Below, piece after piece: positions 1,916 through 22,173 of a stretch of 64,000 nt of DNA (position 1 is its first letter; each line of letters starts with the position of its first letter). This DNA is from Gammaproteobacteria bacterium (GTDB lineage: Bacteria; Pseudomonadota; Gammaproteobacteria; Eutrophobiales; Eutrophobiaceae). The stretch lies in the NCBI GenBank assembly GCA_965215365.1, contig CBDCDS010000003.1:1184001-1248000 (forward strand). The letters are read 5' to 3'. The position numbers and the translations under genes are program-made. The notes below the pieces were generated by a model. It ran no database searches and was not told where the DNA came from. It saw nothing but the letters and a program-made list of their open reading frames with translations.

Positions 1916-2821
1916 GTGAAGCAACGCAGTCGCGAAATCAGTATTTTCAACATGTCCGCCCTGGACCTGTTTGCCTCGGCATTGGGCGCGTTCATCCTGA
2001 TAACGCTGCTCCTGTTACCCTATTTCCCCAATCCTGATCCCGGTCCTGCACAAGAGGAGGCGGAAAAGACCCGGTCGGGAGCGGTTGCAGCAGAGACAGA
2101 AATCGAAGAACTTCGGACTGAATTGGCAGAAAGCAATGCCAGAGGGCGGGAATTGCAGGATAAATTAAAGGCTGCAAACGCCCGGCTGGAAGCGCAGCCA
2201 ACACCCACCAAGGTGGCATTTCCTCCCCTGGATTTGGTGATTGCGCTGGATACCACCGGCAGTATGCACGCACAGGTGCAAGGTCTGAAAGATGAGGTCG
2301 AACAAATTGCGCGGCTGCTTTTGAAGTTAGCGCCAAGCGTAGGCATTGGCGTGGTGGATTTCAAGGATCGTTGTGAAGGCCACAGGGCTACCCATGTCTT
2401 CCCCCTGGTTGAGATGAATAACGTCAGTATCCGCAGTTTATCCGGGTTTACCCGAGGCATTACCGCGGGTGGCTACGCCGGTTGCAACGCAGACAACGAG
2501 GAAGCCATCAACCTTGCGCTCGACCGGGCAGTTACCATGCCCTGGCGCGACCAGACAACCGTCCGGTTGATTGTCGTCATTTCGGATTATCCCGCCTACC
2601 CGGAAACACAGGCCTCCGTTTTACGGCAGGCAAGGCAGTTTGCCGCCGCGCGGGCGGGCAACCGTGTCTCAACCGTGCATGTATCAACCCGGGGTCATGC
2701 ACTCGGCATGACAGCAGGCCCCGAATTTCTGCAACGGCTGGCAGACGCGGGCAGGGGGCAGTTCGTAGGGGGCGGCGGCTCATTCACCGCCATGATATTA
2801 CTTGCCCTCGCCGATAGCTGA
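1916..2821 (+). CDS. Membrane-anchored vWA-domain protein with ExbD/TolR/MotB-like N-terminal TM helix and coiled coil
   Basis: SIFNMSALDLFASALGAFILITLLLL TM with conserved-type Asp; coiled coil; DLVIALDTTGSM MIDAS-type motif and IVVISD. Confidence 0.8.
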   Translation: MKQRSREISIFNMSALDLFASALGAFILITLLLLPYFPNPDPGPAQEEAEKTRSGAVAAETEIEELRTELAESNARGRELQDKLKAANARLEAQPTPTKVAFPPLDLVIALDTTGSMHAQVQGLKDEVEQIARLLLKLAPSVGIGVVDFKDRCEGHRATHVFPLVEMNNVSIRSLSGFTRGITAGGYAGCNADNEEAINLALDRAVTMPWRDQTTVRLIVVISDYPAYPETQASVLRQARQFAAARAGNRVSTVHVSTRGHALGMTAGPEFLQRLADAGRGQFVGGGGSFTAMILLALADS

Positions 2822-2854
2822 GACCGGCCCCTTTGTTATGGATTCATGTCCGCT

Positions 2855-3988
2855 TCAAACAAAGGCTTCCGTATCCCGCAAAAACATTTCTGCAGGGACA
2901 ATCTCTATGCCGCCCTCATGGAAATACCGGTCTCCTGAATAAACGCAAATCAATTCCGCCTCCGGGTATTCTTCCTTGAATTGCTTAAGACCCTTGAAAT
3001 TTTCACGGCGGATGCGGTTCGAGTGCTTGACCTCAATGGCTTTTAATCCACGCTCTCCATACAGCACAAAATCAACTTCCGCTCCCTGTCGGGTACGCCA
3101 GTAATAGATGCCGTAATTCCAGTGCTGGTAATCATTGCGCGCGGTAATTTCCTGCAACACCAGCGTCTCCAGGGCCGCGCCTTCTGCTTCAGCATCCGAG
3201 TCATAGGGACCCGCAGGTCGCAATGCCCGGAACACACCCGCGTCGAAAAAATAGAACTTGACACTGCGGCTCAGGTTACGTTTGGCCCTTCTGGCAAACA
3301 CCGGAATTTGATATGACACCAGGGTGTCTGTCAGGATTGAGAAATAGTTCTCCACGACTTTGCGGTTGACTGCGCAATCCCTGGCTATGGCGGATATGTT
3401 CAGCGGCGAGCCCTGTGAAAAAGATGCCGCTTCCAGAAACCGGCTGAACGCCGGCAGGTTACGCGTCAGCCCTTCCAGTTGTATCTCTTCCTGCAGGTAG
3501 GTTCGAACATAGCTTTGCAGGAACAGGTCCGGGTCAGTGGAGGTGCAAGCCATGGGTAGCTGTCCATATTTCAGCGCACGCGCCAGGTTGAAATCAGCGC
3601 CCAGTTCTGCGGCCGTGAACGGGTGCATGCGACAGGTCAGGGCGCGTCCTGCAAGCAGGTTGACATGATTGCCTCGCAGCCGGCGCGCGCTAGAGCCGGT
3701 CAGCACAAAACGAAGATGCCGGCTTTCTATCAGGCGATGAACTTCATTCAGTAACGCAGGAACCTTCTGCACCTCATCAATAATCACCCAATCGTCGAAC
3801 CCTTCCGGTATTCTGCGGGATAACCTTCCCGGCTCAGCCATGAATTCGTTGTAAAGTTGCGCTTCCAGAAGGTCAAAAAACAGCCCTTGCTTGTAGAAAT
3901 CCCCTACATAGACGCTCTTTCCGGTACCCCTTGGGCCGAAGAGAAAGTAGCTTTGGCGTGCCGGGGGAGAGAAAACTCTTGGATACAT
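2855..3988 (-). CDS. AAA_14 ATPase with C-terminal DUF4143 / PD-(D/E)xK-like domain
   Basis: GPRGTGKS Walker A, IIDEVQ Walker B, LTGSS, KFYFFDAG, YYWRT..GAEVDF, AIEVK. Confidence 0.88.
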   Translation of the reverse strand: MYPRVFSPPARQSYFLFGPRGTGKSVYVGDFYKQGLFFDLLEAQLYNEFMAEPGRLSRRIPEGFDDWVIIDEVQKVPALLNEVHRLIESRHLRFVLTGSSARRLRGNHVNLLAGRALTCRMHPFTAAELGADFNLARALKYGQLPMACTSTDPDLFLQSYVRTYLQEEIQLEGLTRNLPAFSRFLEAASFSQGSPLNISAIARDCAVNRKVVENYFSILTDTLVSYQIPVFARRAKRNLSRSVKFYFFDAGVFRALRPAGPYDSDAEAEGAALETLVLQEITARNDYQHWNYGIYYWRTRQGAEVDFVLYGERGLKAIEVKHSNRIRRENFKGLKQFKEEYPEAELICVYSGDRYFHEGGIEIVPAEMFLRDTEAFV

Positions 3989-20034: not shown

Positions 20035-20052
20035 CCTATTTCTTGGTTACCC

Positions 20053-22173
20053 ATGCCTGACTACCTCCACGCCCTGCCTGCCGGCTACCGCCTTGACGAA
20101 TACGAACTGGTGCGGGTGCTGGGCAGTGGCGGGTTTGGCATTACCTACCTGGGCTACGACCATCACCTAGACAAAGCCGTCGCCATCAAGGAGTACCTGC
20201 CCAATGATCTGGCGGTGCGCGCTGACAATCACTCGGTGCTGCCCAAGTCCAGTCAGGACAAGGCCGATTACGAATGGGGCTTGGCGCGCTTTCTCAATGA
20301 AGCGCAGACCTTAGCCCGCTTTGACCACCGGCATATTATCAAAGTCTATCGGTTCTTCCGCGCCCATGGCACCGGGTATATCGTGATGGAGTATGCCGAG
20401 GGAGACACCTTATCAAAAGTGTTACAGCGTAAGGGGACTCTGACAGAGACCGAGTTACAAGCCCTGCTGTTTCCCATTCTGGACGGGTTGGCCGTGGTGC
20501 ATGAGGCCGATGTGCTGCACCGGGACATCAAGCCGGGGAATATTGTGATACGGGACGATGGCAGCCCGGTATTGATTGACTTCGGCTCGGCGCGTCAAGC
20601 GGTGGCGGGGAAGAGTCGCAGTGTGACGGCAATTGTGACGCCGGGGTATGCACCGATAGAGCAGTATTCAGCCAAGGGGCATCAGGGGGCCTGGACGGAT
20701 ATCTACGCCTTAGGGGCGGTGTGTTACCGGTGTTTGACCGGAGAGCTACCTGATGATGCAACCGAGCGCTTGCGCGATGACCCGTTAGTCCCTGCTGTCC
20801 AGCACTGCAAGGGCAAGGCAAGCACCGCCTTGCTCAACGCCATAGACCGGTCTCTTAAGGTAGATGAGGGGGAACGGCCGCAAAGCGTGGCGGCATGGCG
20901 GGAGATGCTATTGAATAAGACGGTAGCTTCAGCCTATCACCAGATAGAGGAAACGGCGAAACCGGCCACCCGGCCTCCTTCAATAAGCTCTCCAGAGGCT
21001 AAAGTTGGTTGGTTAAAACCCCTGCTGGTTGGGGTAGCAGTGTGGGTAATCTGTTTACTGTTAGTCTTTCTCGCGCAGGAGCAAGCTGCCATACAGCAGC
21101 AGGCTGTCAAACGAGAACGGATACGGCAGGAGCAGGCTGCCATACAGCAGGAGCAGGCTGTCAAACGAGAACAACGGATACGGCAGGAAAAATTATCTAA
21201 CGTTGAAATGTTCGAACAATATATCGTGGAGCAGGCTGTCAAACGAAAACAACGGATACTGCAGGAAAAATTATCTAACGTTGAAATGTTCGATCAATAT
21301 ATCGTGGAGCAGGCTGTCAATGAGCATTGGAACGCGTTTACGGCAGAGCTGAGGACTGGAGATCTGGTCGGAGCGGCTGCTTCCTTGTTTCAAATACGCC
21401 AGTTAAGCCCGAATGCGCCCGGTTTGTCCGACGGGGAGCGACTTTTAGCTGAGGCTCAGGTAGCTGCTCTGGCGAAGGCAATAGAGATGGTCTCCATCCC
21501 CGGCGGCACGTTCCGCATGGGGGATTTGAGTGGGGAGGGTTATAGCAACGAGCAACCCGTTCGCCGCGTCACGGTACCGGCCTTCAGGCTGGGAAAATAC
21601 GAAGTCACGTTTGCCCAATGGGACGCCTGTGTGGCGGATGGAGGCTGTAACGGTTACACCCCGCTTGTAGGCTGGGGCCGCGGCAACCGCCCGGTCGGCA
21701 ATGTCTCTTGGAACGACGCCCAATCCTTCATTGATTGGCTGAACGGCAAGACCGGCGGTAACTACCGCTTACCCACAGAGGCAGAGTGGGAGTATGCGGC
21801 CCGGGCCGGCACGACCACGAAGTACAGTTGGGGCGATGACATCGGCAGCAACCGGGCGAACTGTGATGATGATGTTTGCGGCGACTCCTATGAATACTCC
21901 GCCCCGGTAGGCAGTTTCCCGGCCAATCCTTGGGGCTTGCATGATATGCACGGTAATGTGTGGGAGTGGGTGCAAGATTGTTACAACGATAGTTACAAAG
22001 GTGCCCCGACAGACGGCAGCGCTTGGATGAGTGGTAATTGCGGCGAGCGCGTGCTTCGGGGTAGTTCCTGGTTCGGCGATGCGAGGTTCCTGCATTCCGC
22101 TTTCCGCTTCAAGGGTGCCGCCGCGAGCCAGTTCCACTTCGACATCGGCTTTCGTCTGGCCCAGGACAAGTAA
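20053..22173 (+). CDS. Ser/Thr kinase copy 3: kinase - TM - repeat stalk - FGE-sulfatase (C-type lectin-fold) domain
   Basis: All kinase motifs intact; [75 protein letters not shown]. Confidence 0.93.
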   Translation: MPDYLHALPAGYRLDEYELVRVLGSGGFGITYLGYDHHLDKAVAIKEYLPNDLAVRADNHSVLPKSSQDKADYEWGLARFLNEAQTLARFDHRHIIKVYRFFRAHGTGYIVMEYAEGDTLSKVLQRKGTLTETELQALLFPILDGLAVVHEADVLHRDIKPGNIVIRDDGSPVLIDFGSARQAVAGKSRSVTAIVTPGYAPIEQYSAKGHQGAWTDIYALGAVCYRCLTGELPDDATERLRDDPLVPAVQHCKGKASTALLNAIDRSLKVDEGERPQSVAAWREMLLNKTVASAYHQIEETAKPATRPPSISSPEAKVGWLKPLLVGVAVWVICLLLVFLAQEQAAIQQQAVKRERIRQEQAAIQQEQAVKREQRIRQEKLSNVEMFEQYIVEQAVKRKQRILQEKLSNVEMFDQYIVEQAVNEHWNAFTAELRTGDLVGAAASLFQIRQLSPNAPGLSDGERLLAEAQVAALAKAIEMVSIPGGTFRMGDLSGEGYSNEQPVRRVTVPAFRLGKYEVTFAQWDACVADGGCNGYTPLVGWGRGNRPVGNVSWNDAQSFIDWLNGKTGGNYRLPTEAEWEYAARAGTTTKYSWGDDIGSNRANCDDDVCGDSYEYSAPVGSFPANPWGLHDMHGNVWEWVQDCYNDSYKGAPTDGSAWMSGNCGERVLRGSSWFGDARFLHSAFRFKGAAASQFHFDIGFRLAQDK
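21076..21320 (+). repeat. Tandem coding repeats in the kinase 3 stalk
   Basis: QEQAAIQQ(E)QAVKRE(Q)RIR twice and QEKLSNVEMF(E/D)QYIVEQAV twice; four copies of AGGCTGTCAA. Confidence 0.85.

Follow-up and report, generated by a model that had tools for sequence, protein, structure and literature searches.

A 64,000-nucleotide (nt) stretch of the genome of a Gammaproteobacteria bacterium (assembly GCA_965215365.1, contig CBDCDS010000003.1, positions 1,184,001 to 1,248,000; hereafter the window) carries, between positions 1800 and 22200, what is probably a rearranged and partly eroded copy of a conserved, horizontally mobile envelope system, in which a proton-driven motor would be wired to a Ser/Thr phosphorylation switch. 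Six genes of this system are retained, all on the plus strand and spread over 20 kb. Four of them form a co-directional run at 9684-13727 with intergenic gaps of 12, -1 and 43 nt: a TolQ/ExbB-like channel (9684-10493; MotA_ExbB, PF01618, E 8e-11; probable start at 9708, giving 261 amino acids (aa)), an FHA protein termed FHA1 (10506-11153; FHA E 1.7e-8), a PP2C phosphatase with a C-terminal transmembrane (TM) anchor (11153-12094; PP2C_2 E 3.3e-11) and a trypsin-TM-FHA pseudoprotease (12138-13727; Trypsin_2 E 2e-14, FHA E 2.9e-15). The fifth, at 1916-2821, encodes a TPH protein of 301 aa with a vWA head (VWA_2 E 4.4e-6), and the sixth, at 20053-22173, an intact receptor kinase of 706 aa (kinase copy D; Pkinase E 1.5e-41, FGE-sulfatase E 3.2e-60). 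These assignments come from a Pfam scan of the 29 open reading frames (ORFs) of 1-26600 and confirm the domain names, including those of the co-directional run, given in an earlier note made from the letters alone. That note had gone further, proposing that the parts form a single undescribed system lying inside a defence island.

That the parts belong together is indicated by the co-occurrence of the same families in loci across phyla. A search of species-representative genomes with a profile of the channel returned 431 stretches, of which the best 80 loci were kept, and co-occurrence was counted in the 60 of these with at least 8 kb on both sides, which are drawn from eight phylum-level groups. 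Family hidden Markov models (HMMs) found a kinase beside the channel gene in 59 of the 60, FHA1 in 58, the TPH protein in 57, PP2C in 55, a trypsin-FHA protein in 54 and, in 45, a small FHA protein of about 125 aa whose gene lies directly upstream of that of the channel. All five main partners are present in 49/60 loci and all six in 38/60, so that the co-occurrence expected of one system is indeed seen in other genomes. Unsupervised clustering of the ORFs of all 80 loci yielded seven recurrent families and no more, the next most frequent cluster (12/80 loci) consisting of antisense ORFs. No genes of a type VI secretion system (T6SS) or of cell division are conserved within 10 kb of the system in the 80 loci (a genome-wide T6SS search was not made), and ExbD/TolR and TonB/TolA, absent from the window region, are not conserved in these loci either. 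Since no other family is conserved beside the system, it is attached to no T6SS, nor to another described machine, as had been anticipated.

Carriers were found among Gammaproteobacteria, Alphaproteobacteria, Latescibacterota, Acidobacteriota, Gemmatimonadota, Binatia and Rhodothermales, together with one metagenome-assembled genome (MAG) of Acidimicrobiaceae, and two of them, Halioxenophilus sp. WMMB6 and strain LSUCC0112, are cultured according to their sequence records. The genes occur in two orders that are circular permutations of each other. Four genomes of the same genus as the window (G009, G004, G010 and G001) have an intact cluster, which runs TolQ-like channel, FHA, PP2C, trypsin-TM-FHA, second FHA or trypsin-FHA, TPH and kinase-FGE. 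In a maximum likelihood tree of 81 TolQ-like proteins, the clade of the window (six gammaproteobacterial rows) is sister to a clade dominated by Latescibacterota (support 97/89), three same-genus genomes group with Binatia (support 100/99) and the Gammaproteobacteria label undergoes at least six changes on well-supported branches. Read in this way, the tree indicates transfer of the system between phyla; binning errors may account for some single odd rows.

The core of the system is a putative motor made of the channel and the TPH protein. An AlphaFold2 (AF2) model of the channel (pLDDT 89.8) finds its best folds in the PDB, by Foldseek, in TolQ (9avi_A and 8vlw_B; TMt 0.63-0.64, probability 1.0, E 2-3e-3), followed by ExbB and then PomA/MotA. 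Two Thr residues of the channel helices, T181 and T218, are invariant and a third, T217, is nearly so (at least 90%); T181 and T217/T218 align with Thr positions of PomA that we take to be the ion path. The TPH protein has a short basic N-terminus, a TM helix (residues 10-39) bearing an Asp, a coiled coil and the vWA head. The N-terminal ExbD/TolR-like helix motif with its Asp is present in 61/61 homologues, nearly invariant across phyla, and no Pfam family of exbD, tolR or motB type occurs among the 29 ORFs of 1-26600, which bears out the earlier suggestion of an ExbD/MotB-type anchor fused to vWA. The head itself varies. It is a vWA domain by Pfam in 22 of 35 sampled proteins, and the other 13 share a beta-sandwich of roughly 110 aa whose AF2 model (pLDDT 80) matches TerD structures (E 1.4e-4 to 5.5e-4, TMt 0.51-0.53); the motif of this TerD-like head occurs in 19/61 TPH homologues. 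Channel and TPH protein would thus form a proton-driven motor of the 5:2 type. An apparent FHA-TolQ-like fusion (P0025), considered as Rosetta-stone evidence, was rejected because its middle is frameshift garbage.

Such a motor core has already been predicted in print. An in silico study of 2025 (PMC12204202), built on synteny and AlphaFold3 models, proposes for a sister family, in the part of its text available, that TolQ-like proteins without TolR/ExbD pair with TPH-vWA proteins having a conserved helix Asp. The resemblance covers a TolQ-like gene with no tolR/exbD nearby, tight synteny, a TM-tethered vWA with a proton-binding Asp and a conserved channel Thr. The published motors, as presented there, are mostly heterologous TPH-vWA pairs in a 5:2 assembly with the Asp inside a ring of Thr, whereas in the present loci there is usually one TPH gene (two only in L059, L060 and L111), of the ring only the conserved T181/T218/T217 are seen, the TerD-like head replaces vWA in the 19 homologues just mentioned, and genes for kinase, PP2C, FHA and protease accompany the motor. 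In the main text of that paper the word 'kinase' has 0 occurrences and the sole match to 'FHA' is FhaC. No paper that unites MotA/ExbB/TolQ with FHA, PP2C and kinase in a single system came up in literature searches, and MotA, ExbB and TolQ have 0 occurrences in Kaur et al. 2020 (PMC7159879). To call the system undescribed was therefore too strong for the motor core, at least on the available part of PMC12204202, but holds for the kinase/FHA/PP2C/protease wiring, which was found in no paper searched. Elsewhere in the genome of the window, at G000:C3:177001-197000 (L008, minus strand), a second TolQ-like gene (32% identity) is accompanied by two adjacent TPH-type vWA genes with the same Asp-bearing N-terminal helix and by genes for a 435-aa protein of no known family, a PEGA-FGE protein, a TPR protein and two lipoproteins. 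This cluster includes no kinase gene, and a BrnA antitoxin gene, a methylase gene and a VapBC pair interrupt it. This type is present in nearly all genomes of the genus and, as far as the available text of PMC12204202 goes, probably represents its heterologous-pair family.

The genes around the motor encode readers, an eraser and tethered proteases. FHA1 consists of a conserved N-terminal peptide, a disordered linker and, at the C-terminus, an FHA domain, and Thr T70 of the linker is invariant (26/26 sequences). Weak matches of FHA1 and of the trypsin-FHA protein to FhaB/FipA and OdhI models, all below equivalog cut-offs, are consistent with a GarA/OdhI-like layout of FHA1, in which an acceptor Thr would lie upstream of the protein's own FHA domain. 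The PP2C protein matches a Stp1-type model with E 1.1e-38, below the cut-off, and is anchored by a TM helix at 286-313. The pseudoprotease begins with a signal/TM segment, followed by a trypsin-like domain, a coil rich in Q, A and E, a TM helix and a cytoplasmic FHA domain. Aligned to HhoA, the window protein (12138-13727) keeps the His, while the catalytic Asp is replaced by Asn and the catalytic Ser by Phe, so it lacks the His-Asp-Ser triad of HtrA/DegS, in line with its first description as a pseudoprotease. The triad positions read H-D-S in 38 of 85 aligned rows (84 homologues and the window protein), together with a serine motif of the GNSGGP type, and H-N-F in 26; the two kinds of paralogue are usually adjacent and, to judge from these residues, would form a live/dead pair. 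The small FHA protein ends in a conserved C-terminal peptide in 39/45 cases. In L040-L078 (Latescibacterota and others), where the genes of small FHA and FHA1 flank the TolQ-like gene, the C-terminus of the former and the N-terminus of the latter carry short peptides of similar make-up, in which a basic residue is followed by Asp-Gly or Thr-Gly, two aliphatics and then acidic residues; this may be a common docking motif. A complex prediction for two TolQ-like chains with FHA1 residues 1-45 scored 0.01 (mark 0.32) and speaks neither for nor against contact.

The third component is a set of receptor kinases with interchangeable sensors. Copy D of the window is a Hanks kinase followed by a TM helix (316-348), coiled repeats and an FGE-sulfatase (C-type-lectin-like) domain. 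Of the four kinase copies counted in the earlier note it is the only full one. Over their 5' 660 nt the three kinase genes share 98-100% identity. Copy A (5535-6794, plus strand, 419 aa; Pkinase E 6.8e-42) is 94.6% identical to copy D over 850 nt and has a kinase domain, short repeats and two TM helices (368-419), with no extracytoplasmic sensor domain. Copy C (16619-17899, plus strand) is a pseudogene, a single gene (16619-17335 plus 17339-17899) split by a 243-nt miniature inverted-repeat transposable element (MITE) at 17277-17519 and ending right after its TM helix. What was taken for a further copy at 15020-15442 (plus strand; FGE-sulfatase E 6.5e-26, no Pkinase match) is a stub in which the opening six codons of the kinase are fused to the final ~85 residues of an FGE domain. 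A stretch of 24 nt equals the kinase gene starts, and 234 nt match the 3' end of copy D with 81% identity. Another orphan sensor cassette lies far from the window: an isolated FGE-sulfatase fragment at G000:C3:1843190-1843786, a 198-aa ORF whose DNA is 78% identical to that of the 3' end of copy D. Diversification of the FGE domains by a retroelement was considered and rejected: the genome has no RVT_1 match, and the 52 mismatches between two FGE 3' copies are ordinary and transition-rich, not adenine-specific.

Across the loci the kinases number one to seven. In most of them one TM helix follows the kinase domain, so that the variable domain comes to lie outside the cytoplasm, and among 74 of the 110 kinases, which were scanned for sensors, this domain is FGE-sulfatase in 21, ankyrin in 21, Sel1 in 6, PEGA in 4, PG_binding in 2, and TerB-DnaJ, PDZ, SNase and TM2 in one each, 16 having no known domain. 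In the single TerB-DnaJ case (L039:2166-3836, from the same-genus genome G003), TerB and DnaJ replace both TM helix and sensor, which together with the TerD-like heads ties the system to the domain vocabulary of tellurite resistance (Ter). The multiplicity and variability of these sensors, taken with the mobility of the system, suggest recognition of changing external ligands.

These parts can be assembled into a tentative scheme. In its full form the system would comprise seven or eight genes: the small FHA protein, the TolQ/ExbB-like channel, the GarA/OdhI-style FHA protein, the PP2C with its membrane anchor, one or two bitopic proteins (one dead, one live) whose trypsin/HtrA-like domain lies in the periplasm and whose FHA domain lies in the cytoplasm, the TPH protein with its Asp-bearing helix, coiled-coil stalk and periplasmic vWA or TerD-like head, and a receptor Ser/Thr kinase, or several, whose extracytoplasmic domains are interchangeable. 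The TPH protein would act as the axle of the motor and present its head to a periplasmic or outer-membrane partner. Binding of a ligand outside would be signalled by the receptor kinases through Thr phosphorylation, for which the invariant linker Thr of FHA1 is the best candidate site, the three or four FHA domains would read the phosphothreonine (pThr) and either assemble motor and tethered protease(s) or gate them, and PP2C would reset the switch. The arrangement of kinase as writer, PP2C as eraser, FHA domains as readers and an effector driven by the proton motive force (PMF), proposed in the earlier note, could thus be kept. The fusion of two FHA domains to periplasmic protease modules makes it most likely that the switch acts jointly on motor and proteases, controlling their assembly or their activity. 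A more specific idea, which we put forward with more doubt than belief, is that of a phosphorylation-gated proton motor for envelope recognition: kinases with lectin-like FGE, ankyrin, Sel1, PEGA or peptidoglycan-binding domains would sense a foreign or partner surface molecule, pThr/FHA contacts would license the rotor, and the head would seize and pull a periplasmic or outer-membrane target, feeding or activating the live/dead HtrA-like pair, all in a cassette moving between phyla. If true, such a module would act mechanically in recognition or immunity; the system as such may serve defence, partner recognition or envelope upkeep.

Several points weigh against a conserved motor-and-switch system of which the window holds a copy. 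At least one of the five main partners is missing from 11/60 loci and the small FHA gene from 15/60. The counts also make the loci look more independent than they are, since these are interrelated, mostly come from MAGs and themselves supplied the sequences for the HMMs that scored them. The TolQ fold matches stand at E 2e-3, none reaching 0.001, and the sequence profile of the channel gives only E 0.24-0.34 against PDB stators (PomA, TolQ), which is why a fold search was needed; the VWA_2 score of the TPH protein (27.7 bits) barely passes the cut-off of 27. In the window itself, the small FHA gene and the live protease have been lost in comparison with G003, G018 and G008, and the vWA gene lies 7 kb from the motor gene in a separate transcription unit, so that this copy may no longer work.

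The last point leads to the possibility that the system is real elsewhere but that the window holds a dead relic, left after losses and insertions of IS66, toxin-antitoxin (TA) and MITE elements. The small FHA gene is absent from the whole genome of the window and from G006, while the nearest relatives retain both lost genes (small FHA in G003, G008 and G018). In G003 and G018, pseudoprotease, live protease and vWA lie 8-28 kb upstream of the motor operon; G006 has only pseudoprotease and vWA. In the window the pseudoprotease is now downstream of PP2C, and upstream of the vWA gene a second trypsin-TM-FHA gene is reduced to 89 nt of its 3' end (1802-1890, plus strand). This remnant is 81% identical to 13610-13698 and shows 73% identity over 127 nt with the 3' end of the G006 gene preceding vWA. 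Its position directly before the vWA gene hints that vWA once followed such a gene. One kinase is broken, another is a stub, an IS66 element sits directly upstream of the motor operon, and IS66, a TA pair and an ATPase gene split the copy. Nevertheless, all six surviving genes have intact reading frames; the ratio of non-synonymous to synonymous substitution rates (dN/dS) against orthologues of G006, which shares the reduced make-up, is 0.08-0.27 for the four of the six that were compared (0.08 for the channel, 0.21 for TPH), as an average over the whole divergence that leaves room for recent decay; and five unrelated loci (L071, L072, L073, L076 and L078) have the same six-gene make-up, with a single H-N-F protein and no small FHA. 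On these three grounds a dead relic is rated as possible rather than probable, and a six-gene subset that is still alive seems plausible from the sequences. The cluster first described thus belongs to a real system, but in an incomplete and scattered copy, to which the full form would add the small FHA protein and the live/dead protease pair.

Apart from the kinase copies, the genes interspersed with the six are mostly insertions. On the minus strand, an inserted AAA_14/DUF4143 ATPase gene (2855-3988; Pfam; PADLOC candidate PDC-S01, E 2.6e-53), which does not belong to the system, is missing from intact clusters and has a weak NERD-like match at its C-terminus, is followed by an inserted PIN/MazE(AbrB)-type TA pair on the same strand (4216-4970; PIN E 5.8e-18, MazE_antitoxin E 2.2e-5), which in G006 and G008 also lies among kinase genes. 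On the plus strand, a methyltransferase-like fragment (6868-7560) and an IS66-family transposase gene (7542-9065; DDE_Tnp_IS66 E 2.1e-42) form the insertion upstream of the motor gene (6868-9065), an accessory NTP_transf_8 nucleotidyltransferase gene (13951-14985; Pfam E 1e-48) is inserted (such a gene also stands beside kinase genes in G008), and an ORF of no assigned family precedes a PIN gene (15920-16420; E 1.3e-5), the two (15420-16420) probably making a second TA module. TA genes do lie between the parts, as the earlier note had stated, but the abortive infection (Abi) genes that it listed with them rest only on NTP_transf_8 and PDC-S01. Ordinary genes flank the region, those for GT2 and SDR to its left and those for a metA-type HTS and PNPase to its right.

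The layout is reproducible: contigs of runs from three studies span 1500-5570 and 9577-16644 in unchanged order, and it is therefore not an assembly artefact of one data set. In three runs the segment from 6802 through the IS66 region to ~9600 has contig word depths about 12-20 times as high as its flanks, so it is multi-copy in the genome or the community. The MITE-like element of kinase copy C, which is bounded by terminal inverted repeats of ~20 nt and folds very stably (-130 kcal/mol), recurs in the window at 37602-37842 and 58767-59008, with fragments at 39019-39075 and 42628-42671. Counting copies of at least 200 nt, the genome has about 49 of them, and some stand in tandem, ~243 nt apart. 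One contig of run X6 connects 17276 directly to 17520 without it, and the insertion is therefore polymorphic. Assembled contigs show joints between ~9250-9610 and ~17280-17520, but BLAST with the 243-nt element did not match 9250-9610, whose high depth belongs to another repeat.

A second alternative is that the conserved system serves defence against phages or other invaders in the manner of Zorya, variable receptor kinases and motor sensing an envelope breach or a foreign surface and protease or motor acting as effector. Several features described above would suit this role: the kinase paralogues, up to 7 per locus, the swapping of sensor domains among them, the orphan 3' cassettes and near-identical kinase 5' ends of the window, the transfer between phyla, and the TA modules and PADLOC candidate gene found among kinase genes in this lineage. 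Zorya also shares a channel of the MotA/ExbB superfamily working outside motility or uptake, and possibly envelope sensing. However, in the 19 proteins scanned with PADLOC there is no ZorA tail (the TolQ-like protein ends at 261 aa), no ZorB peptidoglycan-binding domain and no ZorC/D/E, the only ZorA match being E 1.5e-4 over 74 residues (165-238). Neither does TerY-P fit. This triad combines vWA, PP2C and a Ser/Thr kinase (PMC11090510), and with it the present system shares the three domain types and the Ter vocabulary (TerD-like head, TerB-DnaJ kinase in G003); in the part of that article available, though, its vWA is soluble and its kinase ends in a zinc ribbon or OB fold, whereas here the vWA is TM-tethered and periplasmic and the kinases are receptors. 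PADLOC gave no TerY-P match and no named system in the same 19 proteins, its kinase matches to PD-T4-6, mad6, MkoA and PglW reflecting the generic kinase domain only. No nuclease, NADase or pore-type effector is conserved in the 80 loci, and housekeeping genes surround the intact cluster of G009, with serA/DUF1015 on one side and a Sel1-SPOR gene on the other, which shows the defence-island context claimed in the earlier note to be local to this lineage. A Zorya-like role in defence is thus rather unlikely.

Parallels to the signalling part exist in two other systems. As far as the available texts go, the Esr threat-sensing pathway of oral Actinobacteria (PMC13622651), whose sensor-kinase-FHA logic protects these bacteria from epibionts, a point that speaks for the defensive role, and a vWA-kinase-FHA-PP2C operon of D. 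radiodurans (bioRxiv 2026.01.23.701218) likewise unite in one cluster a component that is a surface or vWA protein, a pair of kinase and phosphatase, and an FHA protein as output, but with MoxR-vWA or cytoplasmic vWA and with no TolQ-like channel, TPH helix or tethered proteases.

Less probable still, kinase, PP2C and FHA could be a general cell regulator that happens to lie beside an unrelated TolQ-like/vWA motor. PpkA/PppA/Fha1 is a threonine-phosphorylation pathway of T6SS, and it shares with GarA/OdhI and FhaA/FhaB-PstP-PknAB the combination of receptor kinase, PP2C eraser and FHA reader seen here. The weak FhaB/FipA and OdhI matches noted above would be compatible with such a regulator. 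The kinases of the region are the only Hanks kinases of the genome and might therefore have other targets, for example at the kinase-less locus G000:C3:177001-197000. Yet the T6SS or cell-division genes with which PpkA/PppA/Fha1 and FhaA/FhaB-PstP-PknAB are associated are not conserved within 10 kb in the 80 loci, and a TagH model gives only E 5.4e-9 (36 bits against a cut-off of 120), so that the former, like Zorya and TerY-P, fails in a defining feature, as had been supposed. The linkage of switch and motor holds in eight phylum-level groups and in two gene orders, two of the FHA domains form part of bitopic protease proteins that belong to the system itself, and PP2C and kinases are membrane-anchored beside the motor. 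Moreover, all 3 Pkinase matches of the 2.7-Mb genome, its 1 PP2C_2 match and 2/3 of its FHA matches lie in this region, and the phospho-module therefore looks dedicated to this system. Chance juxtaposition in a mobile, insertion-rich island, which the many insertion sequences, TA genes and repeats of the window region might suggest, is scarcely credible, since the same families stand together in 49/60 well-flanked loci, including compact operons with no insertions.

A conserved envelope system in which a TolQ-like/TPH motor is joined to a phosphorylation switch thus remains the preferred reading, and it bears on ion-driven motors at large. Motors of the 5:2 type power flagella, Ton/Tol, gliding and type IX secretion (T9SS), and Zorya; to our knowledge, none of these is wired to a Hanks kinase/PP2C/FHA switch or to a tethered protease pair. 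With Ton (ExbB-ExbD-TonB) and Tol (TolQ-TolR-TolA) the system would share the channel fold and a PMF-driven force directed to the periplasm, but here ExbD/TolR and TonB/TolA are missing, the axle itself bears stalk and head, and phospho-switch and proteases are added. That so large a gene set is kept together and exchanged among many phyla implies a selectable, so far unnamed envelope function, and as some carriers are cultured, the question is open to genetics. The particular value of the window is that it illustrates how such a system decays and which six genes persist, and these six point to a possible minimal core.

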